NCBI GenBank assembly: GCA_018901625.1
Contig: JAHIEM010000051.1
Span: 1 to 32,316, forward strand
Direction of reading: 5' to 3'
Source of the DNA: Nanobdellota archaeon
GTDB lineage: Archaea; Nanobdellota; Nanobdellia; Pacearchaeales; GW2011-AR1
DNA: 32,316 bases
How positions within the stretch are numbered: position 1 is the first letter of the stretch; every line of letters starts with the position of its first letter. This document shows, piece by piece, positions 131-32,316 of this stretch. The notes below the pieces were generated by a model. It was not told where the DNA came from and made no database searches. It saw only the letters and a list, made by a program, of their open reading frames with translations. The position numbers and the translations under genes are program-made.

Positions 131-290
131 TAGTTCACCAAGGTTCACTTTGCTTATTAATCATGTGTAATCTATAATGAAAATTATCTGTCATAGGGAT
201 AATTATGAAATTATTTGAAGATTAAACTAGGGTTAAATTGGGGGTTATTAGACTGGACTGCTGTGTGGAGGTTCACTAGAGCAGGTATTT

Positions 291-829: not shown

Positions 830-1048
830 AAATTTTTTATCCCTCATCCACTTTAGTCTATAGGTTCTATAGTGGCTATGGCTTATAAACTTTTCGGTCA
901 GACAGGTTGGCAGAATTAACAAACTAATCCAAATCAGTCATAATTGGTTTTCTTCCAACTCCCCTTCCAACCACATTCAGTGCAATTATACATATATTTT
1001 GTCATTATAGAACTAAAAGCCTGAAGTTTATATGGCTTTCCAGAAAGT

Positions 1049-1489: not shown

Positions 1490-1666
1490 ATTCTAAATAA
1501 TACTCTTGGGGTTTTAAATATAATTATGCTGAACAATACAAATCAAAGAATAATAACTCATCTCCCAAACCTAAAAATATAACAAATCACCCATCCAATT
1601 AATTTGCCTACACCTCAGCATTATCTCTCATCAATCAAGAACTAATTACCTACACTCTTTCCCAGC

Positions 1667-2488: not shown

Positions 2489-2678
2489 TTTTTGTTTTTT
2501 ACAGGAAACCTCATTTCGCCTCTTTTTAATGACGCGAAGATTATTAGGACTCTATAGTCACTAATTTCCTGTTATTAGGATTAAATCACAAGTGCTATTT
2601 AAACCTTTTCTTTCTCCAATTTTTTAATTCACCCCCCACCAACAGCAAAATAATTAATGTCCCGCAACATATACTTTT

Positions 2679-5480
2679 TTATTTAGTCTTTTCAAAATAT
2701 ATTTCAAAATCAATATCTTTAACTTTGACACTTAAAATATTTTTCAGTTTGCCCTTTTTCTCGTCGGAGATTTCAGAAATATCTATTTTCTTGCTCCCTG
2801 TCCTGTCAGCTATAAACTTTTTCTGCAAAGAAATTTTGCTGACAAATTCTGGTTTTGTAAGAACTAAAAGAGTTATACTGTCAGTTTTCACTAGCCCTTG
2901 CTTTTTTCTCTCAGCCTGAACAGCTCTAGAAACCTCTCTAGCATAACCCTCAATTTCCAGTTCATCAGTCATCTTTGTATCAAGCCTGACTTCTATTTCC
3001 TTCTTTTCTTTGCTGTTTCTTATGCAAACTTTTTTCACATTCAATTGTCTTGCAATTATCTCCTTCAGCTCATCTTCAAGATTAAAATTTGCAGTTATTT
3101 CTGCGCTTGCAAGAGGCCATTTCAATCCAATATGCGCAATATCTCTCTCGCGCAACCCAATCTCAATAACTTTCATCACCTTCTTGAAACCCTCCTCGAG
3201 TTTTTTGTTAATTTTCTTCCCATCTGCTTTTGGCCACGAAGACAAGTGAACTGAATTCTTGCCAAAGTCATGATGAATCACCTCAGTTATATTAGGGGCA
3301 TACGGGGCAAGCATCCTGGAAACATTATCAAGTATCTCTCCAATAACCTTCTTTACATTCTTGTCATCTCTTTCCCGTATAATCTTTATATACTTCTTTG
3401 AAAAATCATTAACAACAAAATCCATCAGAGGATAAATTGCTTTTTCAATCTGATAAGAATTAAGATTCTCTGTAGCTTCTTTTAACACAGAATTCATTCT
3501 GGAAATAATCCACCTGTCCTCTATTCTTTCTTTACCTGCCCCAGAATTCTCAATCTGCTGATAAAATTGATATGTATTCCACAAAACATTCAAGAATGGC
3601 AGAACCTCTTCCCTAACTAAGTTGATTCCAAATCTCTTGCTAGCCCCAATATCAACAGTGCAGAACTGTAGTCTATTAGCATCAACCCCGATCTCATCTA
3701 AAACCTTGTCAGGGGCAAGCATATTCCCCTTTGATTTGGACATCTTCTCCCCGTTCTCATCTACAATATGCCCTGCGCAGATGACATTCTTGTAAGCAAC
3801 ATCATTAAACAGCAAAGCACCTAGGACATGAAGAGTGTAAAACCATCCTCGAGTTTGGTCTATAGCCTCAGAAATAAAATCATAAGGAAACCTCTTCTCA
3901 AATTCTTTCTTGTTCTCAAAAGGATAATGGAACTGTGCAAATGAAGCAGACCCAGAATCATACCAGCAGTCAATAACCTCAGAAACTCTTGACATATCTT
4001 TTCCGCATTTACACTTCAACTTAATACTGTCAATCCAAGGCTTATGCAAATCAATCTCCTTGTCAGAGATTTTTTTAACAGCCTGCTTCTTCATCTCTTC
4101 AATGCTTCCAATAACTTCTTCATTTCCGCAATCACACCTCCAGATGGGGAGAGGAGTTCCCCAGAACTTATTTCTTGATAATGCCCAGTCTTTTGCATTA
4201 GCAAGCCACTCGCCAAATCTTCCTTCTTTAATATGCTTGGGAGTCCAGTTTATTTTTTCATTAAGTTTAATCAGCTTTTCTCTATAATCTGAGACTCTAA
4301 TAAACCAGGACTTTATAGCATAATACATTAATGGAGATTTGCAGCGCCAGCAGAAAGGATAATCATGCTCATACATAATTCTCTTAAATAATTTGCCCTC
4401 ATCTTCAAGCCTTGCAATAATCTCTTTGTCAGTATCTTTAATAAATTTGCCTTCATAATCTGGAACTTCATCAGTAAATCTCCCAGTCCCATCAACAGGC
4501 TGGATAAAATCAAGCTTATTCATCTTGCACGCATCATAATCAACTTCTCCAAATGCAGGCGCCATGTGAACTAGCCCAGTTCCCTCTTCAGTTGTCACAA
4601 AATCTCCAGATATAACTCTGAACCCTTTCTTGTCTTTGAAATACTGGAAAAGAGGCTCGTACTCTAATCCAACAAGCTGTTTTCCTTTTACAGTCTTTAT
4701 TATCTCTGGCTCCTTGAAGAATTTTTCAGCAAGCTCTTTTGCAACTATATAAGTGAATCCATCCTTCTTGACATAAGCATAATCAATCTTCTCATTGACA
4801 GCAATTCCAATATTCGCTGGCAAAGTCCATGGAGTCGTAGTCCACACGAGAAGGAATTCATTCTTACTCTTGAATTTAACAACAACTGTCTCTTCTTTTA
4901 TTTTTTCATACCCCTGCGCTACTTCATGGCTTGACAATGGCGTCTCGCATCTAGGGCAGAAAGGAACAACCTTATGCGCCTCATACAACAGTTTCTTTTC
5001 GTAAAGCTGTTTCAAGCTCCACCAAACACTTTCTATATAGCTGTTGTCTAAAGTTGCGTATCTATTCTCTAAATCTATCCAGTATCCAATCCTCTCAGTT
5101 GACTTTTCCCAGTCTTTAATGTAAGAAAAAACAGACTCTTTTGCGAGCTTTATGAACTTGCCTGCCCCGAATTTTTCAATTTCCTTTTTCGAGTTCAGGC
5201 CAAGTTTCTTTTCAATCTGAACCTCAACAGGCAGCCCGTGGCAGTCCCACCCCGCCTTTCTTGGCACATTAAATCCTTTCATATATCTAAACTTATTTAT
5301 AATGTCCTTGAAAGTTCTAACCTCTAAATGATGAAGTCCGGGAGGCGCATTCGCAGTTGGAGGCCCTTCAAGAAAACTGAATAATTTTTTCCTCTTCTTA
5401 TCATTAGAAACTGCCTTTTCTATATCTTTCTTGCTTACAAGTTTTCTTGCCTCTTCCTCAATCTTCTTAAAATCATACAT
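2679..5480 (-). CDS. ileS: Isoleucyl-tRNA synthetase
   Basis: 933 aa class Ia aaRS. It has the GPPTANAPPGLHH HIGH-region variant, GWDCHGLPVE, the YIESVWWSLKQL...VVPFCPRCETPLSSHEV editing-domain entry typical of IleRS, and KMSKSKGN. Confidence 0.9.
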   Translation of the reverse strand: MYDFKKIEEEARKLVSKKDIEKAVSNDKKRKKLFSFLEGPPTANAPPGLHHLEVRTFKDIINKFRYMKGFNVPRKAGWDCHGLPVEVQIEKKLGLNSKKEIEKFGAGKFIKLAKESVFSYIKDWEKSTERIGYWIDLENRYATLDNSYIESVWWSLKQLYEKKLLYEAHKVVPFCPRCETPLSSHEVAQGYEKIKEETVVVKFKSKNEFLLVWTTTPWTLPANIGIAVNEKIDYAYVKKDGFTYIVAKELAEKFFKEPEIIKTVKGKQLVGLEYEPLFQYFKDKKGFRVISGDFVTTEEGTGLVHMAPAFGEVDYDACKMNKLDFIQPVDGTGRFTDEVPDYEGKFIKDTDKEIIARLEDEGKLFKRIMYEHDYPFCWRCKSPLMYYAIKSWFIRVSDYREKLIKLNEKINWTPKHIKEGRFGEWLANAKDWALSRNKFWGTPLPIWRCDCGNEEVIGSIEEMKKQAVKKISDKEIDLHKPWIDSIKLKCKCGKDMSRVSEVIDCWYDSGSASFAQFHYPFENKKEFEKRFPYDFISEAIDQTRGWFYTLHVLGALLFNDVAYKNVICAGHIVDENGEKMSKSKGNMLAPDKVLDEIGVDANRLQFCTVDIGASKRFGINLVREEVLPFLNVLWNTYQFYQQIENSGAGKERIEDRWIISRMNSVLKEATENLNSYQIEKAIYPLMDFVVNDFSKKYIKIIRERDDKNVKKVIGEILDNVSRMLAPYAPNITEVIHHDFGKNSVHLSSWPKADGKKINKKLEEGFKKVMKVIEIGLRERDIAHIGLKWPLASAEITANFNLEDELKEIIARQLNVKKVCIRNSKEKKEIEVRLDTKMTDELEIEGYAREVSRAVQAERKKQGLVKTDSITLLVLTKPEFVSKISLQKKFIADRTGSKKIDISEISDEKKGKLKNILSVKVKDIDFEIYFEKTK

Positions 5481-9244: not shown

Positions 9245-9670
9245 TTATCTTCTTCTGCCTAATTCATAAACTTCTTTTGGATGGGGGTCATCTGGATGTT
9301 CAACTCTCTTCCTGCTTCCAATTTTAATTTTCTTTGGCTTTGTATCTCTAACCCTCTTTAAGGACATTTCTGGCGGTCCTAACAAGTAATCAGTAAGAAA
9401 GCATAATCCTCCAAATGCAAAAATTCCCCCGCTAATCATTGTTGATGTAAGATAAAAACCAGCTTCTCTTCCTCTTTTAAGAGATTCTTCTGATATTTGA
9501 ACAGCTTGTGGTTTTTTTAACTGCTCAGCTATTTCTACAGGATTATATTCAGATAATTTTAAGAAATTTGAAAGAGCATTATAACCAGAATAAAGGGCAG
9601 CTGCCCCTGAAATAAGCCATCCTGCAAAACCAAGTTTTTTAATCAAGCCCATGGTTATATTTTTAAACAC
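9245..9670 (-). CDS. Membrane protein (hypothetical)
   Basis: 141 aa with two hydrophobic segments and a basic C-terminal tail. Confidence 0.5.
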   Translation of the reverse strand: MFKNITMGLIKKLGFAGWLISGAAALYSGYNALSNFLKLSEYNPVEIAEQLKKPQAVQISEESLKRGREAGFYLTSTMISGGIFAFGGLCFLTDYLLGPPEMSLKRVRDTKPKKIKIGSRKRVEHPDDPHPKEVYELGRRR

Positions 9671-9688
9671 TTGAAGTATTTAATTTTT

Positions 9689-19307: not shown

Positions 19308-19988
19308 TTATAAACCTTTCTCTTGCAAAAAAGGCATTGCTCTCTCAATGTAAAGCTTATTAGAACTCCCAACAAGACTAAACCATTTTTTAAGCTCATA
19401 TTTTCCGCTTATCCTTATCTTAATCTTGCCCTTCTCTAATTCTTGAATTTTGTAATTAAAACCTGCTTCATTTAGGATGCTAATAAATTGATTTTTTGCA
19501 GGGCAAGGGCAGACTCTAATCTCAATTCTGGGATAACTTATTCCGTTGTTGTTAAAGACAGTCACAGAACCATCAGTGTCAAATAATCCTCTTAGAACAA
19601 GCAAGCCGAGTTTTCCCTTAGTGTAATCTCCTGGGATTTCCATATTTTCCCACTTAGGAGAGATTTTAAGCCCAAGAGAGTCTAATGCGTAAAGAACCTT
19701 TTCTTTCTTAAAAACTCTTATGTCCACCGCATTTTCTTTTTTCTTAAAGAAAATCTTAGGTTCTTCATCAAGAACGTTCTCAATGAGTTTTGCAACATAT
19801 TTAGCGTATTCTTTATTTCTTGAGTCGAGAGTAACTTTTAACTGGTGCATTCGCTTTTTCTTACCCTCCTGTTCAAAGTCGTAAATCCCAATACTGCCAT
19901 CTCCCAGCATGATTCCTATAAACTCAGCTATTTTATCCTCTTTTTCCATCCCTAAATTAAGCATTTCTAGATATTTAATTTTTTCCAA
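19308..19988 (-). CDS. Free-standing double-motif LAGLIDADG homing-endonuclease-like protein
   Basis: Two LAGLIDADG motifs (FIGIMLGDGSI and LRGLFDTDGSV) about 100 aa apart; 226 aa. Confidence 0.8.
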   Translation of the reverse strand: MEKIKYLEMLNLGMEKEDKIAEFIGIMLGDGSIGIYDFEQEGKKKRMHQLKVTLDSRNKEYAKYVAKLIENVLDEEPKIFFKKKENAVDIRVFKKEKVLYALDSLGLKISPKWENMEIPGDYTKGKLGLLVLRGLFDTDGSVTVFNNNGISYPRIEIRVCPCPAKNQFISILNEAGFNYKIQELEKGKIKIRISGKYELKKWFSLVGSSNKLYIERAMPFLQEKGL

Positions 19989-21218: not shown

Positions 21219-21899
21219 TTATAAAATTTCAACAATTTCTCCAATATCTTTTTTTAGGGAATAGAGCATTGGAGGCCTGTGAGAAACATTTTTTTTCATC
21301 TCCTCTTTCTTCAAAATATCTAAAGATAGAATCTTTTTTGCAAAATTTCTTTTATCAAACTTCTTGTCAAAAATAATCTCATAAATCTTCTGAATTTGGC
21401 CTATAGTAAACTTTTCTGGCAATAGTGAGAAAGCAACTGTTGTGTATTCAAATTTCCATTTTAATCTTTTTAATGAATAATCAAGTATCTTCTTATGGTC
21501 AAATGCAAGCTGGGGAATCTTTTTTACAGAGAACCACCGAACTTCTGAAACATCTGTTGCAGCATTAAGTTTTATTTTTTCAGAATTTATTAAAGTCATG
21601 TAAGCAACTGTAATAACTCTTCCTCTTGGATCTCTCTTAGGATCTCCAAAACTATACAATTGTTCAAGATAAACATCTTTAACTCCAGTTTCTTCTTCTA
21701 ACTCTCTTTTTGCAGCATCTTCCAGAGATTCATGAATTCTAACAAATCCTCCTGGAATTGCCCATTTATCTTTAAAAGGCGTAATACCTCTTTTAACTAA
21801 CAAAATTTTCAAATCATTATTTTGTATTGTATAAATAACTATATCTGCCGTAACAGAAGGTTTCTCATATTTATGGATGTTATCTTCCATAGTGTTCAT
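21219..21899 (-). CDS. nrtR: NrtR-like protein: Nudix hydrolase domain fused to a C-terminal winged-helix domain
   Basis: Nudix box GGFVRIHESLEDAAKRELEEETGV. The C-terminal FTIGQIQKIYEIIFDKKFDKRNFAKKILSLDIL matches the NrtR wHTH signature (FTLxQLQxxYExI...DKRNFRKK). Confidence 0.7.
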   Translation of the reverse strand: MNTMEDNIHKYEKPSVTADIVIYTIQNNDLKILLVKRGITPFKDKWAIPGGFVRIHESLEDAAKRELEEETGVKDVYLEQLYSFGDPKRDPRGRVITVAYMTLINSEKIKLNAATDVSEVRWFSVKKIPQLAFDHKKILDYSLKRLKWKFEYTTVAFSLLPEKFTIGQIQKIYEIIFDKKFDKRNFAKKILSLDILKKEEMKKNVSHRPPMLYSLKKDIGEIVEIL

Positions 21900-21913
21900 A
21901 AAACAATAAGGTA

Positions 21914-21940: not shown

Positions 21941-23443
21941 ATGATAACAATGCTTTTTCCTGGAAGACATCACATGCTAACTAAGTTTCAATATAGTTAC
22001 CTAAGAAGCATTATTGATAGAGGAATTAATAGAGAGAAAGTTGATAGGATAATTTTTGCAATAACTTCTTCAGACCATGCTAATACTAGAAGGAATCCTA
22101 TTCCACTTTATCTGCGAGTTTTAGCTATAGAGAAATTTTCAAGAGACTTGCCTTGCGAAGTTAAAATTTATCCCATTCCAGATGTTAATCAAACTAAAAA
22201 GTTTGCAGAATATCTACTTCATCAAATAGAATACCAGGGAGGAGAAAAACTAACATCTAAAAATACAATCTTAGCATGTTCAACTCCTCCAGTTATTAAT
22301 TTATTTAAAAAATTAAAATTTGATAACCTGCCTGTAGAATTATTAGATGCAAAAAAAGACAAGTATTCAAATTTAAGGCCATATGAAGTTGTAGATTTGT
22401 TAGTTAAGGCTGGAAAAAACTGGAGAACAGATTTAAAATGGAAAGAATTTGCTTCTCAGGCAACTCAAGACGTATATTTAGAATACAATTTAGGAGACAG
22501 TATTCTTGAATTATTCAAGGACTCTTTGATTAATGAAGATGCAGATTTAACAGATACAAGAGATTATAATAGTTATGCAAGAGGGATGGACCAAAATATT
22601 GAGTTTAAATTTAATGATATAAACCCCTTTGTTATTCAAGGAAAAATAATTGATGCTGGTTGCGGAACAGGAGCTTTAATTTGGCACCTATCAAAATATT
22701 TTGAGGAATCAGATGTTATAGGCATAGAAGCCACAAGGAAGTTTTATGAATATTGTAAATTGCAACAATACCCAAACCCCTTTGTTTATTTTTATAGAAG
22801 AAATATATTAGACCAGAACTTTAAAAAAAATACTATAAACACTTTTATTTATTCATCTGTTCTGCACGAAATTTATTCTTATATAAACAAAGAAGCTTTA
22901 AGAAAAGTTTTGAGGAATACTTACAATCAACTTGCTCCGGGGGGGAGAATAGTTATCAGAGATGTTGTTGGTCCAGAAAAAGGAAAAGAAAAAGTTTTAT
23001 TAGAATTAAATGAAAAGGATGGAAAAAACTTAGGAGATATTAAGTCTCTTTCAACTTATGCAAAATTTCATAGATTTGTTAAAGATTTTATCCCAAGAAA
23101 AATAAAATTCAGAGAAAAGAAAATTAACAGAAAAAAGCTTATAGAAACCACATTAAGTGATGCGTATGAGTTTATGAGCAAAATGAGTTATACTGACAAT
23201 TGGCAAAGTGAAATGCATGAAGAATTTGGATTTTGGAATTTTAGTGATTGGAAAAAAGAATTAAAGAAAATTGGTTTTGAGATTGTTGCAGGATCACATC
23301 CATTCAAAAGCAATTATATTATAGAGAAAATGTATAATGGAAAAATTACAATCTTCAAGCAAAAAGGCAAAGACTTAACAATTGTGAATTATCCTCCAAC
23401 AAATATTATCCTGGCAGGCGAGAAACCTAAAGTAGATAATTAG
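21941..23443 (+). CDS. Fusion protein: NadM/NMNAT-like nucleotidyltransferase-fold N-domain with an altered HxGH motif, plus a class I SAM-dependent methyltransferase domain
   Basis: The N-terminus FPGRHHMLTKFQ...IIFAITSSDHANTRRNPIPLYLRVLAI aligns by eye with archaeal NMNAT GRFQPFHKGH...[21 protein letters not shown]. The MTase motif I is IIDAGCGTGALIWHL, followed by DVIGIEA and later SSVLHEI and GGRIVIRD. Confidence 0.55.
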   Translation: MITMLFPGRHHMLTKFQYSYLRSIIDRGINREKVDRIIFAITSSDHANTRRNPIPLYLRVLAIEKFSRDLPCEVKIYPIPDVNQTKKFAEYLLHQIEYQGGEKLTSKNTILACSTPPVINLFKKLKFDNLPVELLDAKKDKYSNLRPYEVVDLLVKAGKNWRTDLKWKEFASQATQDVYLEYNLGDSILELFKDSLINEDADLTDTRDYNSYARGMDQNIEFKFNDINPFVIQGKIIDAGCGTGALIWHLSKYFEESDVIGIEATRKFYEYCKLQQYPNPFVYFYRRNILDQNFKKNTINTFIYSSVLHEIYSYINKEALRKVLRNTYNQLAPGGRIVIRDVVGPEKGKEKVLLELNEKDGKNLGDIKSLSTYAKFHRFVKDFIPRKIKFREKKINRKKLIETTLSDAYEFMSKMSYTDNWQSEMHEEFGFWNFSDWKKELKKIGFEIVAGSHPFKSNYIIEKMYNGKITIFKQKGKDLTIVNYPPTNIILAGEKPKVDN

Positions 23444-23885
23444 TTCTTGCCCAATCCTTTATTTGTTCTGCTAAACTTTCTAAAGAATAAACAATTTTAA
23501 TCTCAGGTCTTTCAAGTCTTGTTTGAATTTCCACATCTCTTCTTCTTACATACCCTGCATGAACTCCTATGAATAGAGGCTTTTTACCTGTGCTTTGTTT
23601 TCCCAATTCATACAGCGTTATAGGGCAAAGTGTCTCTTTTGGAAACCAGAAAGAAACTGCACTTGCTTTTGCTAGATGATTGTATTCCCAATTTATTTGT
23701 TCTTCTTCAATATTTAGATTGTCTGTTGAAAAATGTTTTCTTTTCGGATTTAAAATAACTAAATTAGTCTCTTTAAGGAGCCTAGCCAAATCAGGTTGCC
23801 AGATTGGACAGTTACTAATGCCACCAGCTAAAAACAAAGACATTTCTTGACCTTCATAAACTTCTGGACATTCTATATATTTCAT
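23427..23885 (-). CDS. Nucleoside 2-deoxyribosyltransferase-like (Rossmann-like N-glycosidase superfamily) protein
   Basis: 152 aa. SLFLAGGISNCPIWQ (nucleotide-binding start), ...EQINWEYNHL...VSFWFPKETLCPITLYELG is typical of the Nuc_deoxyribosyltransferase-like families. Motif-level call. Confidence 0.5.
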   Translation of the reverse strand: MKYIECPEVYEGQEMSLFLAGGISNCPIWQPDLARLLKETNLVILNPKRKHFSTDNLNIEEEQINWEYNHLAKASAVSFWFPKETLCPITLYELGKQSTGKKPLFIGVHAGYVRRRDVEIQTRLERPEIKIVYSLESLAEQIKDWARTNYLL

Positions 23886-23892
23886 ATTAGTT

Positions 23893-25557
23893 TTATCTTT
23901 TGTATTTTTGGGTTACAATCTTTTTTATTAGAGTTAATCCATAAAATTTCTTGTTTTCTTTTGGAAAATCTTCTCTATAATGACAAGCTCTTGTTTCTTT
24001 TCTTGCAAGAGCACTTTCTACAATTGCTAATGCAACCTCTGCAATGTTTCTTACTTCCAAAAAGTCTTTTTCTATTTTATAATTCCAATAATATTCATTT
24101 ATGTCTTTTTTTAATGCAAGAAGTACTTCTCTTGCAGCAGTTAGTCTTTCTTTGTTTCTGGCAATTCCACATAAAGAAGTCATTGTCTTTCTTATTGTTT
24201 CCCAATAATATTCAATTGTTGCTTTGTCTTTTATATGCTGATTAGTTGTTGATTTCCATATGGGAATCTTTATTTCTTCTTTGGAATTTTTATTGTCTTT
24301 GTTAAGGAAATGTTTTGCAGCTAACCTGCCGAATAAAATACATTCTGGAGCAGAATTACTTGCAAGTCTTGTTGCACCATGCAATCCTGTATATGAGACT
24401 TCTCCGATAAAATAACAGTCTTCAATACTTGTTTCACTATTTTCTCCAACCAAAACTCCTCCATTAGAATAGTGTTCTGCATAAACAACTGGGACTGATT
24501 CTTTAATTAAATCTATGCCTTTAGATAAACAAAATTCATAGGAATTTTTAAAATCCTGCTTTAATCTTTCAGACTCAATTTTTGTACAGTCAAGCCAGAT
24601 ATTTTTTAATTTGTTTTTTTTCATTTCCATATCTTCAGCTCTTGATACAACATCTCTTGTTGCTTTTGAACCAAGAGGGTCATATTTTAAAACGAAATCT
24701 TCTTTTGAATCTTTATCAAGTTTGAGAAAAGCTCCTGCTCCCCTTAGTGCTTCTGTTAATAAAAATCTTCTTTCACTTTCATTAGTAAGGCATGGGTCAT
24801 AAAATACAGTTGGGTGAAATTGTATAAATTCCATATTTGCAAGAGGCAAACCAATTCTATATGCCATCGCAAATCCATCTCCAGATGCAATATCTTGATT
24901 AGAAGTATACAAGAAAACTTTTCCCAAACCTCCTGTTGCAATGAATGTACTATCACAGCTTATTGTTTTAATATCATCTTCATTTATATCATAAATATAA
25001 AAACCTAGACATCTATCTTTTCCTTTAGTTTTAAAAAATTTATTTTTTGTTATCAAATCTATTGCTACATGGTTTTCATATAATTTAATATTTGGATGAT
25101 TTTTTACTAATTTTGTTAAAATATCCATTATTGCTTTTCCAGTTGTATCTTTAACATGAAATATTCTGTTGGTAGAATGTCCTCCTTCCCTATGCAAGTC
25201 ATATTCATTATTTATTTTATCAAATTCAACTCCCTTTTTTTCAAGCCATTGGATTACTTCTGGATAGAATTTTTCTGCGCAAAATTTAACTATTTTTTTA
25301 TTATTCAAAAACTTTCCTGCTTTTAATGTATCATCAATATGTTTTTCAAAAGAGTCTCCAGCAATTGGTTTTCCATTTTTTAATGGAATTGCAGTTAATC
25401 CGCCTGCTGCAAGATAACTATTAGAATCTTCTTGCAATTTTTTTTTAACAAATAACGCAACTTTTTTACCAGAATCAGCAATCTCTAAAGCAATAGCACA
25501 TCCAGCAAGCCCGCCTCCTATAATTCCACAATCAGTTTTTAAAAAAATATTTTTCAT
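23893..25557 (-). CDS. nadB: L-aspartate oxidase-type FAD flavoprotein
   Basis: FAD dinucleotide fold DCGIIGGGLAGCAIALEIA, FIATGGLG, FIQFHPT, EHYSNGGV, and GEVSYTGLHGATRLASNSAPECILFG (NadB/SdhA signature); 554 aa. Confidence 0.75.
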   Translation of the reverse strand: MKNIFLKTDCGIIGGGLAGCAIALEIADSGKKVALFVKKKLQEDSNSYLAAGGLTAIPLKNGKPIAGDSFEKHIDDTLKAGKFLNNKKIVKFCAEKFYPEVIQWLEKKGVEFDKINNEYDLHREGGHSTNRIFHVKDTTGKAIMDILTKLVKNHPNIKLYENHVAIDLITKNKFFKTKGKDRCLGFYIYDINEDDIKTISCDSTFIATGGLGKVFLYTSNQDIASGDGFAMAYRIGLPLANMEFIQFHPTVFYDPCLTNESERRFLLTEALRGAGAFLKLDKDSKEDFVLKYDPLGSKATRDVVSRAEDMEMKKNKLKNIWLDCTKIESERLKQDFKNSYEFCLSKGIDLIKESVPVVYAEHYSNGGVLVGENSETSIEDCYFIGEVSYTGLHGATRLASNSAPECILFGRLAAKHFLNKDNKNSKEEIKIPIWKSTTNQHIKDKATIEYYWETIRKTMTSLCGIARNKERLTAAREVLLALKKDINEYYWNYKIEKDFLEVRNIAEVALAIVESALARKETRACHYREDFPKENKKFYGLTLIKKIVTQKYKR

Positions 25558-25558
25558 A

Positions 25559-26386
25559 TTAGTTCGGGGTAATCACCCTTAATGGGTTTTTACTTAATTT
25601 TATTTCGAGCCGCGAGTCTCTAGGTAAATCAAATTCTTTTGTATCTATAGAAAATTTTCCTTCATGCCCTTTGTAATCTATTCTAACATAACCTGCTTTT
25701 CCTTGCCCAATAATTCCTGAATAGGGTAGCAATGTTCTAAACTCAAAATATGGGTTGCTTCTTGAATATGTTTTAAATGCAGCAGGCCATGCACTTGAAC
25801 CTGTTCCAGTTACAATAACAATTCCAGAACCACTTTGAGTTTCTTGTTTAGTTAATCCACTTTCTGCATCTAAAAACATTAGATTGTACTTTGCAAGTTT
25901 ATCAAATCTTAATCTTTCTCCTACACATGTTTCATTAGAAGCTCTTCCTGCGAATTTACCATCAAGATAAACATCTTGCCTTTGCCATTCTTCAATTTTA
26001 TATTTGCCTGAGAGAAAAAGTTCAAGAGCTTTTTCAACATCTTTTTGGCAAAGGGCTCCTGCGCTTCTTGAATCTGTTCTTAAGTTTAATTGGATAATAT
26101 CTAAGTTATATGCTGCCACAGCAATAACTGTTCCATCTCCTCCTGCTGAAATTACAGCATCATAACCTCTGAGAAGTTCTTCAGAAAGTTCTTTTCTTGT
26201 TACTATATCAACTTGGGTTCCAGCTTTCTTTAATATTTCCTCTATTCTTCTTAAACTTTCATTATGGCTCTTATGACTTTCATTTATAACTTCACTTTTA
26301 TGATTTCCATTATAATAATATTCAAGAGCAGACATTTTTCTTACAACAAGTATTTTTTTAAAAGCCATTTTAAATTTCCTTCTCAA
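25559..26386 (-). CDS. nadK: NAD kinase
   Basis: GGDGT motif (ISAGGDGTVIAVAAY) and the C-terminal VTGTGSSAWPAAF (equivalent to TPTGSTAY). The start could be the internal M at 26368. Confidence 0.75.
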   Translation of the reverse strand: MRRKFKMAFKKILVVRKMSALEYYYNGNHKSEVINESHKSHNESLRRIEEILKKAGTQVDIVTRKELSEELLRGYDAVISAGGDGTVIAVAAYNLDIIQLNLRTDSRSAGALCQKDVEKALELFLSGKYKIEEWQRQDVYLDGKFAGRASNETCVGERLRFDKLAKYNLMFLDAESGLTKQETQSGSGIVIVTGTGSSAWPAAFKTYSRSNPYFEFRTLLPYSGIIGQGKAGYVRIDYKGHEGKFSIDTKEFDLPRDSRLEIKLSKNPLRVITPN

Positions 26387-26460
26387 ATAAATTCCAATCT
26401 TTGAAATAGTTTCTCATATAATTCTCCCTAATTGTCTATTTTTAAAGTAATTGTTTAGTT

Positions 26461-26994
26461 TCATTTTATCTCCCCCAATCTTCGCAATTTTTCATACATT
26501 ACTAGATAAGCTGTCTTTGACCCTTCTATTCTGTTGTCAATCACCATTTTATAAACCTCATCAAAAGAGAGAGTTACTACTTGAATTTTCTCTGTATCTT
26601 CTAATCTTTGATTCACCTTTTTTCCCGGACCATGTGCTAAAAATAAATAGACTCTTTCAGTATCATGGCCGTCTGTTGAGATAAGCCTCCCAAGTGATTC
26701 AACTTGATTAGGTTTAATTCTAATTCCACATTCTTCTTCAAGACCCTCAATCATTACTTCCAAAGGACTTAATCCCTCTTTATCAAGTGTTTCAGCAGGT
26801 AATGCTAAAATCTCTTCTTCCATTGCAGGCCTGAATTGTTTAGTGAGATAAACCTGATCTTTTTCATCAATATATAACATAACTGCTGCATCTTTTGATA
26901 CAACTACATCATATTTTTTCCCTTCATGAAACCTGTGAACAAGAGTTAGGTACCCTCTGTAAACAACAATATCTCGCGGTTTAGTTTTTACCAT
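26461..26994 (-). CDS. Nudix hydrolase, ADP-ribose pyrophosphatase-like
   Basis: LPAETLDKEGLSPLEVMIEGLEEECGI is a Nudix box in the NudF-like context. The start is set at ATG 26994, 1 nt after the nadD stop; the track ORF extends to 27051 inside nadD. Confidence 0.6.
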   Translation of the reverse strand: MVKTKPRDIVVYRGYLTLVHRFHEGKKYDVVVSKDAAVMLYIDEKDQVYLTKQFRPAMEEEILALPAETLDKEGLSPLEVMIEGLEEECGIRIKPNQVESLGRLISTDGHDTERVYLFLAHGPGKKVNQRLEDTEKIQVVTLSFDEVYKMVIDNRIEGSKTAYLVMYEKLRRLGEIK

Positions 26995-26995
26995 T

Positions 26996-27559
26996 TTATT
27001 TAAGATAAAATTCTCCATTTTTAATATATTCTTCAACTTTATCTGGAACAAGCCCTTTAATTAAAATTCCTTTTTCAAGATTATCTCTAATTTGATTTGA
27101 AGATATTTTATTATTTATATTCAAAATCTCCCGAATATCAATTCCTAAATCATTAGAGAAATCAAAACCAGGTCTTTTTATTAAAATAAATTTAACACTA
27201 TTCTTTAAATATTCAAAGTCATGCCATTTTTCTAAATCCTTTATATTATCTGCTCCCATGACAAAATAAAAATCATGAGGAAATTCTCTTTTAAACCAGG
27301 ATATTGTTTTTGAAGTATAGCTTTTTTTATCTGGATCTAATTCTACCCCTATTACTTTAACTAAAGGATTATTTTCAATAGCTAAATTAATCATCTTCAT
27401 TCTAACTTCTCCACTTACTAGTTTTTTATTAAATGCATGATTCCCACAAGGAATAAGCCAAACTTGGTCCACTATTTGCTTTGATAGTAATTCATTTACT
27501 ATTTGCAAATGCCCGTTGTGAATTGGATTAAAACTTCCTCCAAATAATGCAACTTTCAT
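26996..27559 (-). CDS. nadD: Nicotinate-nucleotide adenylyltransferase, bacterial NadD type
   Basis: ALFGGSFNPIHNGHL (GxFxPxHxGH), later FVMGADN and the ISSNQIR (ISST-like) motif; 187 aa. Confidence 0.85.
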   Translation of the reverse strand: MKVALFGGSFNPIHNGHLQIVNELLSKQIVDQVWLIPCGNHAFNKKLVSGEVRMKMINLAIENNPLVKVIGVELDPDKKSYTSKTISWFKREFPHDFYFVMGADNIKDLEKWHDFEYLKNSVKFILIKRPGFDFSNDLGIDIREILNINNKISSNQIRDNLEKGILIKGLVPDKVEEYIKNGEFYLK

Positions 27560-28260
27560 TTTTCCTCCCGAACATAAAAAGTTGGGGGCATTTTTCGCTT
27601 ATGTTCTGAATATCTCACTCTATTCTGGATTGCATCATAAACTTTCCCTTTTGTTATCTCTCCATTTAATACAGCATCAATTTCTTTGTAACTCGCTCCA
27701 ATTTCTCCCTCATCCGTTTGCCCCTCAAAAAGTTCTGCAGAAGGTTTTCTGTCTATTATTTTTTTAGGTATTCCTAAAATTTTAGCTACTTCAAAGATTT
27801 TTGTTTTGTAGATATCTGCTATTGGTTCAATATCACAACCACCATCTCCATATTTTGTAAAATATCCTATTTCAATTTCAGTTTTGTTGCTTGTTCCTAC
27901 CACTATTCCGTTTAGTTGATTTGCAAAACTGTACAAAATTATCATTCTTGTTCTTGCCATTATGTTTCCTAGGCTTACTTTATCAAATTTGTAATAATTG
28001 AATTTATCAACTATCTCTTTGATATTTATTTCTTTGTTCTCTATCCCAAGATAATCTGTAACAAGTTTTCCGTCTTCTGTACTCTGTGCTCCATATGGAA
28101 TTAAAATTCCAAGAACATTTTCCTTGCCTACTGCCCTTACGCATAGGGCAGCGACTACCGCACTGTCAATTCCACCAGATACCCCGATTATTGCTTTTTT
28201 GTTTCCTAGGTATTCTCTAAGTTTCAATGTTATTTTTTCAATTACTTCTTCGTGCATCAT
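27556..28260 (-). CDS. nadE: NH3-dependent NAD+ synthetase
   Basis: PP-loop GVSGGIDSAVVAAL, GTSNKTEIEIGYFTKYGDGG, and EEKPSAEL-like PSAELFEGQTDEGE. The start at ATG 28260 forms an ATGA overlap with the upstream stop. Confidence 0.85.
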   Translation of the reverse strand: MMHEEVIEKITLKLREYLGNKKAIIGVSGGIDSAVVAALCVRAVGKENVLGILIPYGAQSTEDGKLVTDYLGIENKEINIKEIVDKFNYYKFDKVSLGNIMARTRMIILYSFANQLNGIVVGTSNKTEIEIGYFTKYGDGGCDIEPIADIYKTKIFEVAKILGIPKKIIDRKPSAELFEGQTDEGEIGASYKEIDAVLNGEITKGKVYDAIQNRVRYSEHKRKMPPTFYVREEK

Positions 28261-29195
28261 TTTCCTTCTTCCTCCAAAAAATAAGGTGTTAAGCAAAGCC
28301 TGCAAAATTTCCCCCTAATAAAAGGCTCAATTGCCTCTGTTGTATTCGCCAATAAAATAGCATCACTTGCTTTCAAGCTAAGATTATGTTTCTCATTTAG
28401 ACTATTGACTATTTTTTCCTGAATTGGCTTGTATTTTTTGTATAACTCCTGTGGCTTTATATTGTCCAAGACTTTTTCAGTTACAACTAAAGAAAAGATA
28501 TTTTTGAACCATTTATTTCCAATTAATGTTTCTAGAGGCTCTTTTGTAAAAGCAAAACCAGCCCTGTAATAATACATTCCAAAAGGTTTTGACATTGAAG
28601 CCATAACTGCAATTATATTTGGATAGCCAACATCAAAAACATGCTCTTGTGTTAATCCAACATAAGCAAGGTCATACACTACCCTATGATATTTACATAT
28701 ATTCTTTACGAACTCATTTGGAATTATATTCCCATCTCTTCCAGAAGGGTTTGAAATAAAAAATATGCCTGGCTCTAATTTTGAAAAATCCTCATTTTCA
28801 TCAACTTTCTTTATTTTTATTCCTATTCTTACTGCATACTCTTTATAGCCTTCATACTCTTCATTGAGTGTATATATCTGAATATCTGGCTCTTTGCATT
28901 TTAATTCCACAAGAAAGTGAAAAATTCCCTGCCTTGAGCCCTCTGTGAAATACTTAAATGGAAAATTCTTTAACCCAGGAACAAGTTTTTTATGATATTC
29001 TATAAATTTCTCTATTGCTGGAAGATGAAAGTTATCCAATCCTGGATTTATTGAGCTAAGAAAAACTTTATGCGGGTAATTTTTAACAACTCTGTCTATG
29101 ATTTTTCTTATTTCAGGAAAATAATAACAATAAACTGTCTTTGTTGCTTTTATTTTTTCTTCTCTTTCAATTATTTTTTGTTTTTGTTTTTTCAT
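28257..29195 (-). CDS. Short aminotransferase class I/II-like (PLP fold type I) protein, function unknown
   Basis: FISNPSGRDGNII (equivalent to NPxNPTG), YDLAYVGL (equivalent to DEAY), and ASMSKPFGMYYYRAGFAF (equivalent to SxSKxxGxxGxRxG, the PLP lysine). At 312 aa it is shorter than typical aminotransferases. Confidence 0.5.
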   Translation of the reverse strand: MKKQKQKIIEREEKIKATKTVYCYYFPEIRKIIDRVVKNYPHKVFLSSINPGLDNFHLPAIEKFIEYHKKLVPGLKNFPFKYFTEGSRQGIFHFLVELKCKEPDIQIYTLNEEYEGYKEYAVRIGIKIKKVDENEDFSKLEPGIFFISNPSGRDGNIIPNEFVKNICKYHRVVYDLAYVGLTQEHVFDVGYPNIIAVMASMSKPFGMYYYRAGFAFTKEPLETLIGNKWFKNIFSLVVTEKVLDNIKPQELYKKYKPIQEKIVNSLNEKHNLSLKASDAILLANTTEAIEPFIRGKFCRLCLTPYFLEEEGK

Positions 29196-29196
29196 C

Positions 29197-30057
29197 TTAA
29201 ATTAAAATTGCTCCTTTATATTGCCAGTCAAACCTGAGATGCCCGTCTGGAAAAAAGATTATTTGCCTTAGGCTATCTGACTTTGGTTTAATTGTTAAAG
29301 CATCTGTTAAGCACAGATTCTGCCCGTTTAAATCGTAAACTTGTGCTCCATCTTGCAAGGTCATTATTTTATTTCCATTTTTTGCAATAAATTTTTTTAT
29401 TTTTACAAGTTCAGTTTCGCTTGCAATATTCTCTTTAGTCCATGCGAATATATCTTGGTTTTCAGAGTGTTTTGGCGTTGCTAATTTTCTTATGCTCAAT
29501 TGCTCAACTTTCCATTCTTTAGCTTTTTTAATAAGTTTTTCAACTTCTTTGGGATTATCCACAAATCCCTTTAGAATAGTGCAGCTTAATCTTACTGAAA
29601 ACCCTATTTTGTGAAGTTTATCTATTAGGTTTTTAAGTTCAGGATACTTATCAGAGAAAATTTTCTTATTTCTCTTTTGTTCGTAATGAACTATAGATAA
29701 TGCAATCATTGTTAATCCAAGCTTGTACCATTCTTCCAAGTACTTATTGTAGTTTTCTTCAGCTAAAACAATTCCGTTTGTTTGCAATTCTAATAACGGA
29801 AAATTAAACTTTTTTAAATTTTCCAAAAATTTTGTTATTTGCTCTGGATAAAGGGTTGGTTCTCCTTTTCCAGTTATTAAGGTAGTTGTTACTCCATTTA
29901 TTTCTGCTAACCTACAAGCCTTCTCAAAATTTCTCCAGTTAACTCTTGGTTCTTCTATATTAATTCCTTGTTTTGGAGTCATCTTTGATATGCAGTACGG
30001 GCAGTGTGCATTACATTCTGTTGTTCCTGCAACTATGCTAAATGTTTGTATTTTCAT
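29197..30057 (-). CDS. Radical SAM enzyme, function unknown
   Basis: CNAHCPYC (CxxxCxxC) at aa 15-22, and TLITGKGEPTLYP (SAM-binding GGE-like motif); 286 aa. Confidence 0.8.
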   Translation of the reverse strand: MKIQTFSIVAGTTECNAHCPYCISKMTPKQGINIEEPRVNWRNFEKACRLAEINGVTTTLITGKGEPTLYPEQITKFLENLKKFNFPLLELQTNGIVLAEENYNKYLEEWYKLGLTMIALSIVHYEQKRNKKIFSDKYPELKNLIDKLHKIGFSVRLSCTILKGFVDNPKEVEKLIKKAKEWKVEQLSIRKLATPKHSENQDIFAWTKENIASETELVKIKKFIAKNGNKIMTLQDGAQVYDLNGQNLCLTDALTIKPKSDSLRQIIFFPDGHLRFDWQYKGAILI

Positions 30058-30890
30058 ATTCTTCCCTCCAAGACATCTTTAGTTGTGATTAGTTTAGCTC
30101 CTGCTGCAACCATTTCTTCCAAAGCTTTTTGAGTTGTGTCTGGAAAAACTCCTTTTACAGCATCTTCAATGACATAGCACTGAACTCCCCTGTTTTGAAG
30201 TTCGAGAGTACCTGCTCTTACACAAAAATCAGTTGCAACTCCATATACCACTGCTTCATCAATTCCTGCTCTTTTTATGAATTCGCCTGTATTCGGATTG
30301 TCAAAAACATTGTAGGTTTGTTTTTCAAAATAAACTCCTCTCTGCAGATACCCTGGGATTTTTACTCTTTTTACTTCTTCGACCATCATTCCAATTTCTT
30401 GATTATCGATTCCTGTTGTCTGCAAAATAAACATATCTTTAATTTCTTCTTCACTTGCTTCCCAGAACTTAGGATTTTGCGTTTTTTCAATAAACTCTCT
30501 TGTTTCTCTACGAACTTCTTCTAAAGTGACTTTGCAGGTTAGGGGATTATAAACAAAGAAGCAATCATTATAATCTCCCTCCCCTTTTCCTCCCCATGAC
30601 CCCCTTTTAAGTGTTGTTTCCCAAATCTTGTCTTGCCCGGCAGTATGATTCATGCAGTGATCTGGGAAAGGCCCGCCCCATCTTCTTAATTCTCCTTCTC
30701 TTTCTTTGTATTCCAGATTTCCGAAATGCCTATCAACACTCCCCACTATTGGAATGCCTTTTTCTCTTGCAAAATCAGTTAGAAGCTTTAGGTTTGGCCT
30801 TATCAATTCTGCATCAGGGACATATAATGCTCCTTCTTTTTTCATAAAGTCATATTGTGTGTCAACATCCCAAAAAACTCTTAGTCTCAT
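30054..30890 (-). CDS. pncA: Nicotinamidase (isochorismatase fold) with a large internal insertion
   Basis: VDTQYDF (catalytic Asp), SVDRH and FPDHCMNHTAG (metal site), FEKQTYNVF (Lys), VYGVATDFCV (nucleophile Cys); 278 aa. Confidence 0.8.
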   Translation of the reverse strand: MRLRVFWDVDTQYDFMKKEGALYVPDAELIRPNLKLLTDFAREKGIPIVGSVDRHFGNLEYKEREGELRRWGGPFPDHCMNHTAGQDKIWETTLKRGSWGGKGEGDYNDCFFVYNPLTCKVTLEEVRRETREFIEKTQNPKFWEASEEEIKDMFILQTTGIDNQEIGMMVEEVKRVKIPGYLQRGVYFEKQTYNVFDNPNTGEFIKRAGIDEAVVYGVATDFCVRAGTLELQNRGVQCYVIEDAVKGVFPDTTQKALEEMVAAGAKLITTKDVLEGRI

Positions 30891-32077
30891 CTTCCTCCTC
30901 CTAATCTTAATTTTAATCTTAGATTTGGATTATATCCTCTTCCTGTTTTTGAGATTGGAACAAAACTTTCAGGAGTTTCTCCAACAGCAACTATGTCCAT
31001 TTTTGCTGCTCTTGATTTGAATACCTGGCCAACTCCAAGTAAGTCAAATAATTTTACTCCTAAAATTTCTTCTGCATTTGCAAAAGCTTCTACTTTTCTT
31101 GGTTCTGCAAATCCACTTGATAATGCAAGTTTCATGTTAGCATATCCCTTTTCATTTAGAGCTTTTCTCATGGCATAAACTCCTGTTACATTTACTCCGT
31201 GTCCAAACCAATATTTTTCATCTTCAGTTGGAACTATTATTCTTCTTCCAACTAATTGTGCTAATTTTTCTGCATCTGGGAATTCTAGGGCTCCTTCCCC
31301 TACATTTTCTCCACAAGTATCTATTCGTGGTCCCCATAATCTGTTTCCAATTCCTTTTGCACAGGCTAAAGTATCTGTAATTTCTTTATTTCTGTAATCG
31401 CAGAGAATTATTCTTGGCACTTTAGCATCAATGTGTCTATCAAAAGCTAGAAGAGTTTCAAGAACAGCCCTTTCTCTTCCATATTTCCAAGCCATTATAT
31501 TTTCTAAAACATGCGGAGTTGTGCCCATTCCTTTTTGTCTAAATGTCCCTGCTCCTGCATCTGTTGAAGCGCTTGTTGCTCCACCCTCATAAGCAGCCCA
31601 GGTAATTGCAGCATCTTCATCAAATCTCCAGTGTCTTGCTCCAAAATATGAAACCGGCCTTCCTCTAGCTGCTTTAACAACAGCAGCCATATTTTCTCTT
31701 ACTTGATTTAAATCTACTCCCTGTCTATCATTGGCTTTAGTTGTTTCTGCACTTAAAACTCCTAAATACATTGTTTCAAGTTCTACTATATCCTGAATTG
31801 GAGCTTCAATTAACATAAGTGTTTCTCTCGGAGCATAATCTGCTCCTTCTTCTAAAGCATAAACTCTCCCACCATTTTGTTTTAAAGGAGAATATTTTTC
31901 AAGAACAGCCAGAGCTTCATCTACTCCATAAACTTGCCCTGGTCCTTTTCTTATCATTACCTGAGCTCTAACCCATGGATTGATACCTTCAGCTCTTAGT
32001 ACTTCTCCTGTCCTTAAGAAATACTTATCAGCATATGGCTGAGGTTTCTCAGGTAGACTAAAGTTTGTTGTTTTCAT
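30887..32077 (-). CDS. pncB: Nicotinate phosphoribosyltransferase, archaeal/type II PRTase (QPRT-like fold)
   Basis: At 396 aa its length matches the about 390-aa archaeal NAPRTases. ...FGARHWRFDEDAAITWAAYEGGATSAST...GMGTTPHVLENI... resembles the Thermoplasma-type enzyme (FGIRRMHP...GGADGVS...VGTMPHAL). Confidence 0.75.
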   Translation of the reverse strand: MKTTNFSLPEKPQPYADKYFLRTGEVLRAEGINPWVRAQVMIRKGPGQVYGVDEALAVLEKYSPLKQNGGRVYALEEGADYAPRETLMLIEAPIQDIVELETMYLGVLSAETTKANDRQGVDLNQVRENMAAVVKAARGRPVSYFGARHWRFDEDAAITWAAYEGGATSASTDAGAGTFRQKGMGTTPHVLENIMAWKYGRERAVLETLLAFDRHIDAKVPRIILCDYRNKEITDTLACAKGIGNRLWGPRIDTCGENVGEGALEFPDAEKLAQLVGRRIIVPTEDEKYWFGHGVNVTGVYAMRKALNEKGYANMKLALSSGFAEPRKVEAFANAEEILGVKLFDLLGVGQVFKSRAAKMDIVAVGETPESFVPISKTGRGYNPNLRLKLRLGGGR

Positions 32078-32316
32078 TTTCCCCTCCTCGCTTTAAATCT
32101 TAAGAAATCTCCATCTCTCTGGTCAGATTCATATTTTACCTGCCATCCTGCCTCAGCATACCTTCTTATTAATTCGGTATAAAATTTATCCCCGTATTCT
32201 ACTCCTTCTGGTAGATTAATGCAAGCTGTGTAACCTTCTATTCCAGGTCTGAATTGCTTTGCCAGAGCCATGTCTATTATTTGTTCTAATCTTTTTACTA
32301 CTGCTTCATCCTGCCC
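32074..32316 (-). CDS. Hypothetical protein, possibly N-terminally truncated by the window edge
   Basis: The frame is open from the window end (…GQDEAVVKRLEQIIDMALAKQFRPG...) to the stop at 32074-76, with an ATGA-type overlap with the pncB start. The first in-window ATG is at 32271. Confidence 0.45.
   Translation of the reverse strand, partial: GQDEAVVKRLEQIIDMALAKQFRPGIEGYTACINLPEGVEYGDKFYTELIRRYAEAGWQVKYESDQRDGDFLRFKARRGK

Follow-up and report, generated by a model that had tools for sequence, protein, structure and literature searches.

How does an archaeon with a reduced genome control a long run of genes for nicotinamide adenine dinucleotide (NAD), and what are a radical S-adenosylmethionine (SAM) enzyme and a pyridoxal phosphate (PLP) enzyme doing among them? 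The locus that raises these questions lies in contig JAHIEM010000051.1 (assembly GCA_018901625.1, Nanobdellota archaeon), positions 1–32,316; this entire stretch is termed the window. Eleven minus-strand open reading frames (ORFs) are packed tightly from 23427 to the window end. An earlier note, made from the letters of the sequence, described this island as a self-contained NAD reconstitution and maintenance module. A salvage cluster it is, but one under regulation: the note missed the NrtR regulator and its operator, and the nadB gene stands without nadA or nadC. The locus probably represents a DPANN archaeon's NrtR regulon, condensed into what is practically a single operon.

The host is as the note had it, an archaeon with a reduced genome. 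The closest homologues of the window proteins come from metagenome-assembled genomes of Woese-, Pace- and Nanoarchaeota, and these, together with the gene content, assign the window to a DPANN archaeon. Genes elsewhere in the window encode TrmB, KaiC, IleRS, Sua5, TatD, dUTPase, and RNase HII.

The NrtR regulator, its operator and the operon promoter

The island is larger than the run of coupled genes. The earlier note correctly listed the genes from 23427 on; the unit continues through a gene for a 500-aa protein (21941–23443) to the gene for an NrtR-family regulator (21219–21899). The regulator matches the structure of Shewanella NrtR (3gz5, E=1.5e-35) over its full length, and also that of AraR (5bs6). 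Its Nudix box (GX5EX7REUXEEXGU) is intact.

Bacterial NrtR binds a 21-bp palindromic operator built around GT-N7-AC, and is released from DNA by ADP-ribose (PMC2330246). In the window, a box of this type at 21892–21906 abuts the probable NrtR start, within a 41-nt divergent region. This promoter and box are common to NrtR and the 500-aa gene. At least 15 related loci likewise have such a box directly at the NrtR start.

The other end of the island is completed by a sister-strain contig, L070, which matches the window at 99.7% identity across 11.4 kb and extends past the window end. There, 218 nt of intergenic sequence lie ahead of the small ORF that heads the operon, and they contain an archaeal TATA box, TTTAAATA, at 9664–9671. 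Boxes of the GTGT-N7-ACAC type are at 9630, 9672, and 9694: one upstream of the TATA box; one abutting it; and one between it and the start codon at 9726. The operon promoter, just outside the window, is a TATA box bracketed by three NrtR-type 21-bp palindromes.

These boxes belong to a sharply defined class. Across 1.03 Mb of related loci there are 31 occurrences of the core GTGTA-N5-TACAC where 0.9 are expected, and nearly all lie upstream of either a NAD gene or the radical SAM gene. With at most one mismatch allowed, 80 of 238 GTGT-N7-ACAC sites lie at −30 to +250 relative to NAD gene starts. Flanking positions that were unused for selection are 87–90% conserved, which extends the core to a 21-bp palindrome, WTAGTGTA-N5-TACACTAW. 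By its sequence, the locus has two of the features that define an NrtR regulon: the architecture of the regulator, and the operator.

The resemblance to bacterial NrtR regulons (PMC2330246; MsNrtR, PMC6800001) is close: a regulator that joins a Nudix sensor to a winged helix; a 21-bp GT-N7-AC operator upstream of pncAB, nadDE, pnuC-nadR, and nadABC; and a box at the start of the regulator gene itself, which suggests autoregulation. The differences are also plain. NrtR is described as bacterial in the literature searched; here it occurs in a DPANN archaeon, with operators on either side of an archaeal TATA box. Moreover, the regulon includes genes for radical SAM, PLP, nucleoside deoxyribosyltransferase (Ndt)-like, 92-aa, and nicotinamide mononucleotide adenylyltransferase (NMNAT)-like/methyltransferase proteins, none of which is reported for NrtR regulons in that literature.

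The genes encode a predicted salvage line from nicotinamide to NADP. PncA would convert nicotinamide to nicotinate, PncB would make nicotinate mononucleotide (NaMN), NadD would make nicotinate adenine dinucleotide (NaAD), and ammonia-dependent NadE would complete NAD. A divergent NAD kinase would yield NADP, and a Nudix ADP-ribose pyrophosphatase would dispose of ADP-ribose. Following the bacterial NrtR paradigm, ADP-ribose would build up as NAD is consumed and release NrtR, and the whole salvage line would be induced.

Gene coupling and the salvage enzymes

The coordinates of the features are collected in Table 1. The eleven translationally coupled ORFs, their junctions, and the single large gap reported by the earlier note are all borne out, and its gene order and identities are right at the level of protein domains (Pfam and NCBIfam). 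There are five 4-nt ATGA overlaps (32077/32074, 30890/30887, 30057/30054, 28260/28257, and 27559/27556), three 1-nt gaps (29195/29197, 26994/26996, and 25557/25559), and one 7-nt gap (23885/23893). Motifs resembling a GGAGG Shine-Dalgarno sequence precede pncB, pncA, the radical SAM gene, nadE, and nadD. The starts given for nadE (28260) and the Nudix gene (26994) are internal ATGs of longer mechanically called ORFs; they give tight coupling and match the gene calls on L070.

Table 1. Features of the NAD island in the window, with the evidence for each
Feature	Coordinates	Strand	Identification
NrtR-family transcription regulator	21219..21899	-	PF00293 Nudix sensor and PF21906 NrtR_WHD winged helix
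NrtR-type operator	21892..21906		GTGTTCATAAAACAA, 1 mismatch to GTGT-N7-ACAC
NMNAT-like/methyltransferase protein, 500 aa	21941..23443	+	Methyltransferase Pfam matches, C-terminal half
Nucleoside 2-deoxyribosyltransferase-like protein, 152 aa	23427..23885	-	PF15891 61.8 bits, cut-off 30
nadB, L-aspartate oxidase	23893..25557	-	TIGR00551 455.2 bits, cut-off 452.75
nadK, divergent NAD kinase-like protein	25559..26386	-	Weak PF01513/PF00781 matches
Candidate internal promoter for nadK-nadB-ndt	26387..26460	-	TATA-like TTTAAAAATA (~26437-26446)
Nudix hydrolase, ADP-ribose pyrophosphatase-like, YffH/AdpP subfamily	26461..26994	-	PF00293
nadD, nicotinate-mononucleotide adenylyltransferase	26996..27559	-	TIGR00482 149.6 bits, cut-off 112.45
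nadE, NH3-dependent NAD synthetase, 234 aa	27556..28260	-	PF02540 236 bits
Fold-type I PLP enzyme, 312 aa, distant HisC/CobD relative	28257..29195	-	PF00155 32.4 bits, cut-off 19.7
Radical SAM enzyme, 286 aa	29197..30057	-	PF04055 56.8 bits, cut-off 29.5
pncA-like nicotinamidase, isochorismatase fold, 278 aa	30054..30890	-	PF00857 92.6 bits
pncB-like nicotinate phosphoribosyltransferase, archaeal type II, 396 aa	30887..32077	-	PF02749 QRPTase_N
Small conserved protein, first operon gene	32074..32316	-	Cut by window end; 65 of 92 aa inside

The sole sizeable intergenic gap is the 74 nt upstream of nadK, which would widen to 92 nt if nadK starts at ATG 26368, as called on L070. The TATA-like sequence in this gap may be an internal promoter driving nadK-nadB-ndt; a box scan found no NrtR box there. 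A scan of the island for sigma-70 promoters and terminators gave results no better than shuffled sequence.

Protein identities come from Pfam and NCBIfam scans, and an equivalog was called where the score exceeded the curated NCBIfam cut-off. NadE, NadD, and NadB pass; NadE (NF010587, 273.3 bits against a cut-off of 255) has no glutaminase domain. Others score lower. The PncB-like protein reaches 130.6 bits with the nicotinate phosphoribosyltransferase (NaPRT) model NF006415 (cut-off 243), and the Nudix protein 50.6 bits with TIGR00052 (cut-off 79.55). The PncA-like protein, at 58 bits with the PncA equivalog (cut-off 174), conserves the active-site Cys (in an ATDFCV motif) and the N-terminal Asp, and contains an insertion of about 60 aa. 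The NadK-like protein reaches 20.6 bits with PF01513 (cut-off 25.5) and at most 35 bits with NCBIfam models (cut-offs about 300); its translation contains GGDG and TGTGSSAW motifs, and equivalent divergent kinases are present in the clusters of relatives.

NadB is an orphan in the window. Searches by tblastn with nadA and nadC of relatives found neither gene in the 32 kb, and the de novo route is not encoded here. Close relatives (L005 and L038) keep nadA together with a nadC-nadB fusion, so nadB probably is a remnant of the nadA-nadC-nadB module that relatives still carry. The apparent fusion, of about 845 aa, lies beside a canonical nadA (L005, 17283–19811; L038, 6024–8567). One might speculate that NadB moonlights, for example by supplying ammonia to the ammonia-dependent NadE.

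The GC content steps within the operon: it is 0.37–0.40 over the small ORF, pncB, and pncA (30054–32271), like the remaining window, and 0.26–0.35 in the genes downstream (23427–30057). Relatives have either the archaeal type II enzyme or a classical PF04095 NaPRT at the pncB position, and the presence of a different NaPRT type at the same position suggests that the operon head has been exchanged.

The radical SAM enzyme and its PLP partner

The radical SAM protein has an invariant CNAHCPYC sequence (CX3CX2C) and an invariant GKGEP, a GGE-like SAM motif. Only three cysteines (C15, C19, and C22) are invariant in 56 orthologues; C48, C159, and C249 vary, and an auxiliary Fe-S cluster like that of MoaA or BioB is therefore rejected. 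The AlphaFold2 model (pLDDT 93) shows a partial TIM barrel followed by a beta extension at the C-terminus. Its top Foldseek matches are MoaA, viperin, and viperin-like enzymes (TM about 0.65–0.67), and R156 aligns with the GTP-binding K163 of MoaA.

No NCBIfam family matches the radical SAM protein above its cut-off. MoaA is rejected (TIGR02666, 59 bits against 284; no C-terminal auxiliary-cluster cysteines), as are a viperin (pVip) defence gene (NF038283, 38 bits against 180; PADLOC, 39 bits; no kinase partner seen) and a QueE-like deazapurine enzyme (matches of 17–24 bits only). The protein of L056, which is 36% identical and adjoins a QueC-like gene, probably belongs to a different family. 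With MoaA and viperin the enzyme shares CX3CX2C, the partial TIM barrel, and the beta extension, and they are its best structural matches; it differs in its low identity to them (12–18%), and in a context of NAD salvage rather than of molybdenum cofactor synthesis or antiviral kinase pairs.

The PLP protein has K203 (in SMSK), D175, N149, and R211 invariant in 64 sequences. Its model (pLDDT 93) is a shortened fold-type I structure, nearest to HisC and to the L-threonine-O-3-phosphate decarboxylase CobD, whose NCBIfam models score 35 and 25 bits, respectively (cut-offs about 280). It shares with these enzymes the fold and the Lys, Asp, Asn, and Arg conserved in class I/II aminotransferases. Unlike them, it has only 312 aa, with a shortened N-terminus and 12–17% identity, and it invariably adjoins or is fused to the radical SAM enzyme. 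The fusion is illustrated by P0336 (666 aa), full-length over both a radical SAM domain (36% identity) and a PLP domain (38% identity).

Searches of the PDB by sequence and by profile yielded nothing useful on characterised relatives of either protein, and a literature search linking radical SAM to NrtR, nicotinamidase, NaPRT, or quinolinate synthase found nothing relevant. The earlier note had singled out both genes as having no place in described NAD pathways, and homology indeed assigns neither to any characterised pathway, related or unrelated. At least three families in the island are without a described role in NAD metabolism: the radical SAM enzyme, its PLP partner, and the 92-aa protein.

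Conservation in DPANN and CPR genomes

Homologues of the radical SAM protein at 54–94% identity are numerous in DPANN. A profile search (E<=1e-30) delimits a family of 418 clusters at 50% identity. A divergent member used as query returned only proteins of uncultured DPANN and candidate phyla radiation (CPR) organisms, and the named homologues all are from metagenome-assembled genomes of these uncultured groups.

Gene neighbourhoods were compared in 66 loci from species-representative genomes, of which 56 have an orthologue and 49 have enough flanking sequence. Of the 49, 33 have a NAD gene no more than 6 kb from the radical SAM gene. Gene by gene, the neighbours are nadE in 22; Nudix in 22; pncA in 19; the PLP gene in 19; NrtR in 17; nadK in 17; and pncB in 16. 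The order pncB-pncA-radical SAM-PLP-nadE-nadD is kept in L001 and L002 at 58–66% identity, with NrtR, PnuC, NadR, Nudix, and NAD-kinase-like genes near these clusters. Among CPR contigs, L113 has NrtR-pnuC-nadR-radical SAM-PLP-nadK-pncB-pncA with a box at its head, the Uhrbacteria locus L116 has nadK-pncB-radical SAM-nadE, and L114 has the radical SAM-PLP pair inside a full NAD operon. Collier- and Woesebacteria have the pair on its own, in the rpoC-rpsL-fusA region, and even so a perfect box overlaps the −10 element, 11–19 nt upstream of the start codon.

The linkage to pncA, pncB, and nadE that the earlier note proposed to check thus was found in both DPANN and CPR, and extends to nadD and NrtR. 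By neighbourhood and operator, the radical SAM enzyme, with an optional PLP partner, belongs to the regulon as a genuine, widely conserved member, most tightly linked to PncB, PncA, and NadE. A reciprocal search started from NrtR found the radical SAM gene in three of the five closest NrtR loci and not in high-GC bacterial NrtR loci, which points to lineage-specific recruitment. The layout is common in these lineages, and the investment in NAD, which the note took to be unusually large, is not unusual for this group. The operon itself is ordinary; the enzyme family embedded in it is the interesting part.

In Collierbacteria-type loci (L021, L024, L029, L050, and L115), a homologue of the MttB methyltransferase family is divergent from the radical SAM-PLP pair, and an NrtR-type box sits in the intergenic region between them. 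The MttB-like protein was considered as a partner, in trigonelline demethylation, and rejected: it is confined to four or five CPR loci, and so looks like local synteny.

Modules on predicted phage contigs

In IMG/VR, 42 predicted viral loci encode members of the family (27–61% identity, contigs up to 461 kb). None was found among GenBank phages (INPHARED), PHROGs, or plasmids (PLSDB). The only genes repeatedly seen beside it in distinct viral lineages are those for classical NaPRT (nine loci), NadE, NadD, and an isochorismatase. Predicted viral examples include L072–76 (pncA-like-radical SAM-pncB-nadD-nadE) and L094; some predicted phage modules add phosphoribosyl pyrophosphate synthetase (Prs) and an ATP-grasp protein. 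On the phage-like contig L117, the radical SAM gene shares a neighbourhood with NadE, Prs, and NaPRT. The PLP partner was detected in none of the viral loci.

NAD reconstitution by phages is an established counter-defence (bioRxiv 10.1101/2024.02.11.579819; PMC13464706). The described pathways are NARP1 (Adps and Namat), NARP2 (Nampt and Nmnat), and NARP3 (PnuC and NadR); the texts of the NARP1/2 preprint and the NARP3 paper make no mention of PncB, NadE, or radical SAM. A survey of viral NAD systems describes viral NAD synthesis through NadV, NadM, and NadR only, and neither NadE nor nicotinamidase occurs in its text. Like NARP1–3, the island is compact and self-contained, and its genes would rebuild NAD from breakdown products. 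PnuC and NadR, as in NARP3, are present only in the clusters of relatives, and related modules occur on predicted phage contigs. Unlike NARP1–3, the route encoded in the window is deamidated (PncA, PncB, NadD, and NadE, along with radical SAM), and the window has no Adps, Namat, Nampt, or PnuC with NadR. The predicted large-phage module likewise is of the deamidated (Preiss-Handler) type.

What might the radical SAM enzyme do?

To our knowledge, NAD biosynthesis is regarded as fully mapped, with no radical SAM step known. It is tentatively proposed that the enzyme, with or without the PLP partner, performs a new reaction in NAD metabolism, or forms or repairs an NAD-derived nucleotide. One possible role, held with similar reserve, lies upstream of NaPRT. 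Here, the enzyme would act by radical chemistry on a phosphorylated precursor, or on one derived from an amino acid, and so supply or rescue a pyridine carboxylate for PncB; in hosts with poor metabolism, this precursor would be made or recycled by the HisC/CobD-like enzyme; and phages and some CPR organisms, leaning on host metabolites, would do without the PLP partner. Three considerations suggest such a role: NaPRT is the most constant partner in phages and CPR; pncB accompanies the radical SAM gene without pncA in L044, L100, L101, L103, L116, and L117; and radical SAM enzymes of cofactor clusters typically build the heterocycle.

Several points weigh against the NrtR regulon as drawn here, or against substrate supply as the enzyme's part in it. 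The window contains only one operator, an imperfect one, and the main promoter was read on the sister strain. NrtR-family proteins can take other effectors, as AraR does. The PncB, PncA, Nudix, and NadK proteins fall below equivalog cut-offs and are identified at the domain level only. Within 6 kb of the radical SAM gene, 16 of the 49 loci lack any NAD gene, although the operator is present in many of the 16. For substrate supply, the evidence consists of gene order and the pncA-less clusters, and most clusters do contain pncA, so that nicotinate is already provided for. Finally, the nearest folds, MoaA and viperin, act on the riboses of nucleotides, which favours modification of a nucleotide.

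Modification of a nucleotide is somewhat less probable than substrate supply, and is the alternative that survives best. A viperin- or MoaA-type enzyme would abstract a ribose hydrogen from NaMN, NaAD, NAD, or ADP-ribose, to give a modified or repaired NAD-related nucleotide, and the PLP partner would transaminate a keto intermediate. The fold points this way, since the best Foldseek matches act on GTP (MoaA) or on CTP and UTP (viperin and viperin-like enzymes), although a TM of 0.65 is generic among partial TIM-barrel radical SAM enzymes and the family scores lie far below both cut-offs. The single cluster, with no auxiliary cluster, is as in viperin; R156 aligns to the GTP-binding residue of MoaA; the group to which the HisC/CobD-like partner belongs binds phosphorylated substrates; and the gene mostly is located between pncB and nadE. 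Yet no known NAD derivative needs such chemistry, an exotic derivative is unlikely for a housekeeping regulon of minimal genomes, and the PLP partner accompanies the enzyme in only 19 of 49 genome loci and in none of the viral ones.

A different question is whether the island is ancestral housekeeping at all. It might instead be a mobile or virus-derived cassette that reconstitutes NAD against immune or toxin NADases. Such an origin seems unlikely: no integrase, repeats, or tRNA mark the island borders in the window (the nearest tRNA is 3.5 kb away); the same layout occurs amid housekeeping genes on contigs of 0.15–0.8 Mb in many DPANN and CPR lineages; like chromosomal regulons, the island comes with a repressor and an operator of its own; and PADLOC gave no significant defence match, the weak pVip hit being the only relevant one. 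In favour of a cassette are the low GC of most of the island relative to pncB, pncA, and the remaining window, the swapping of pncB type among relatives, the homologous radical SAM-pncB-nadD-nadE modules on predicted viral contigs, and the use that phages make of NAD reconstitution against defence.

Replacement of NadA, with the radical SAM enzyme (and perhaps its partner) placing the orphan NadB in a working de novo pathway, is highly improbable. The window does have nadB without nadA, L002 has nadB and nadC with no nadA within 10 kb, and the order nadC-radical SAM-nadB is found in L016 and L017. However, canonical NadA and the radical SAM gene occur together in seven loci (L005, L012, L016, L017, L025, L037, and L038), and for this reason the replacement is rejected; in addition, most radical SAM clusters have neither nadB nor nadC, nadC is missing from the window, and phage modules pair the enzyme with NaPRT rather than with quinolinate phosphoribosyltransferase. 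Replacement of Prs is rejected as well, because L117 has Prs in the same NAD neighbourhood, some 1 kb upstream from the radical SAM gene.

Equally improbable is that the two genes are unrelated passengers, such as a molybdenum cofactor MoaA and a histidine HisC, as the public annotations ('molybdenum cofactor biosynthesis enzyme MoaA' and 'histidinol-phosphate aminotransferase-like') would have it: both proteins are far below equivalog cut-offs, the MoaA auxiliary cluster is absent, there are no genes for molybdenum cofactor or histidine in the vicinity, the association with NAD genes persists across DPANN, CPR, and phage contigs down to 37–40% identity, the radical SAM gene has its own NrtR-type operator, and the two are found fused.

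Other genes of the island and its surroundings

The small ORF at the head of the operon, which the earlier note rightly described as extra and unexplained, is cut by the window edge. Its full length, seen in L070, is 92 aa, with the start 36 nt beyond the window end; it has no Pfam, PHROG, or PADLOC match. The mark of this family of about 92 aa is a C-terminal motif, GW.V.YESDQR(D/E)G.(F/Y), and members (L070, 9726–10004; L005, 8573–8914 and 9266–9544; L035, 7607–7891; L037, 357–635) are located in, or head, NAD clusters of several DPANN lineages. Some relatives have a 156-aa family, with no Pfam match, between pncA and the radical SAM gene (L002, 9534–10004; L005, 9534–10004).

The 500-aa gene is convergent with the operon and divergent from NrtR, and a homologue also adjoins NrtR in the metagenome locus L123. 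Residues 31–90 of the protein weakly match the archaeal NMN adenylyltransferase MJ0541 (E=0.17). This N-terminal NMNAT-like domain is degenerate, with GRHHMLTKFQ in place of the GRFQPFHxGH motif.

The Ndt-like protein matches PDB 4mcj (E=3e-7), and its gene is present in 8 of the 49 related clusters. The earlier note had counted it among the genes outside NAD pathways, but a place in salvage is plausible, where it would act as a base-releasing N-glycosidase.

The window and L070 differ at 31 positions in total. Twelve of these are in the nadK-like gene, which is a local hot spot of divergence or recombination between the strains, and eight are in the 500-aa gene. There are none in the radical SAM gene, pncA, nadD, the Nudix gene, ndt, or NrtR. 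An A9 run in nadB (25438–25446, 111 nt into the gene) is A8 in L070, which would frameshift the gene into 53 + 514 aa. Decay of an orphan gene, phase variation, and an assembly error are all conceivable causes; because the last is a possibility in a homopolymer, the difference is not counted as a sign of decay.

A freestanding ORF resembling a LAGLIDADG endonuclease (19308–19988, minus strand) lies 1.2 kb from the island. In L070, an SMC gene (181–4611) contains an intein that bears a LAGLIDADG domain.

Implications

The locus provides a clear-cut example of an archaeal TATA promoter under an NrtR repressor, and its sharply defined operator can be used to find further members of the regulon. 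The module is common to the smallest known cellular genomes, those of DPANN and CPR, and to predicted huge phages. If the proposed role of the radical SAM enzyme is true, an oxygen-independent route of one or two enzymes to the pyridine carboxylate used by NaPRT would be a third route to niacin, and the phage version would be a fourth pathway of NAD reconstitution, of the Preiss-Handler type. This would mean new enzyme chemistry as well as a new phage counter-defence against NAD-depleting immunity, and a different way of judging from genomes how far DPANN and CPR symbionts are autonomous for NAD.

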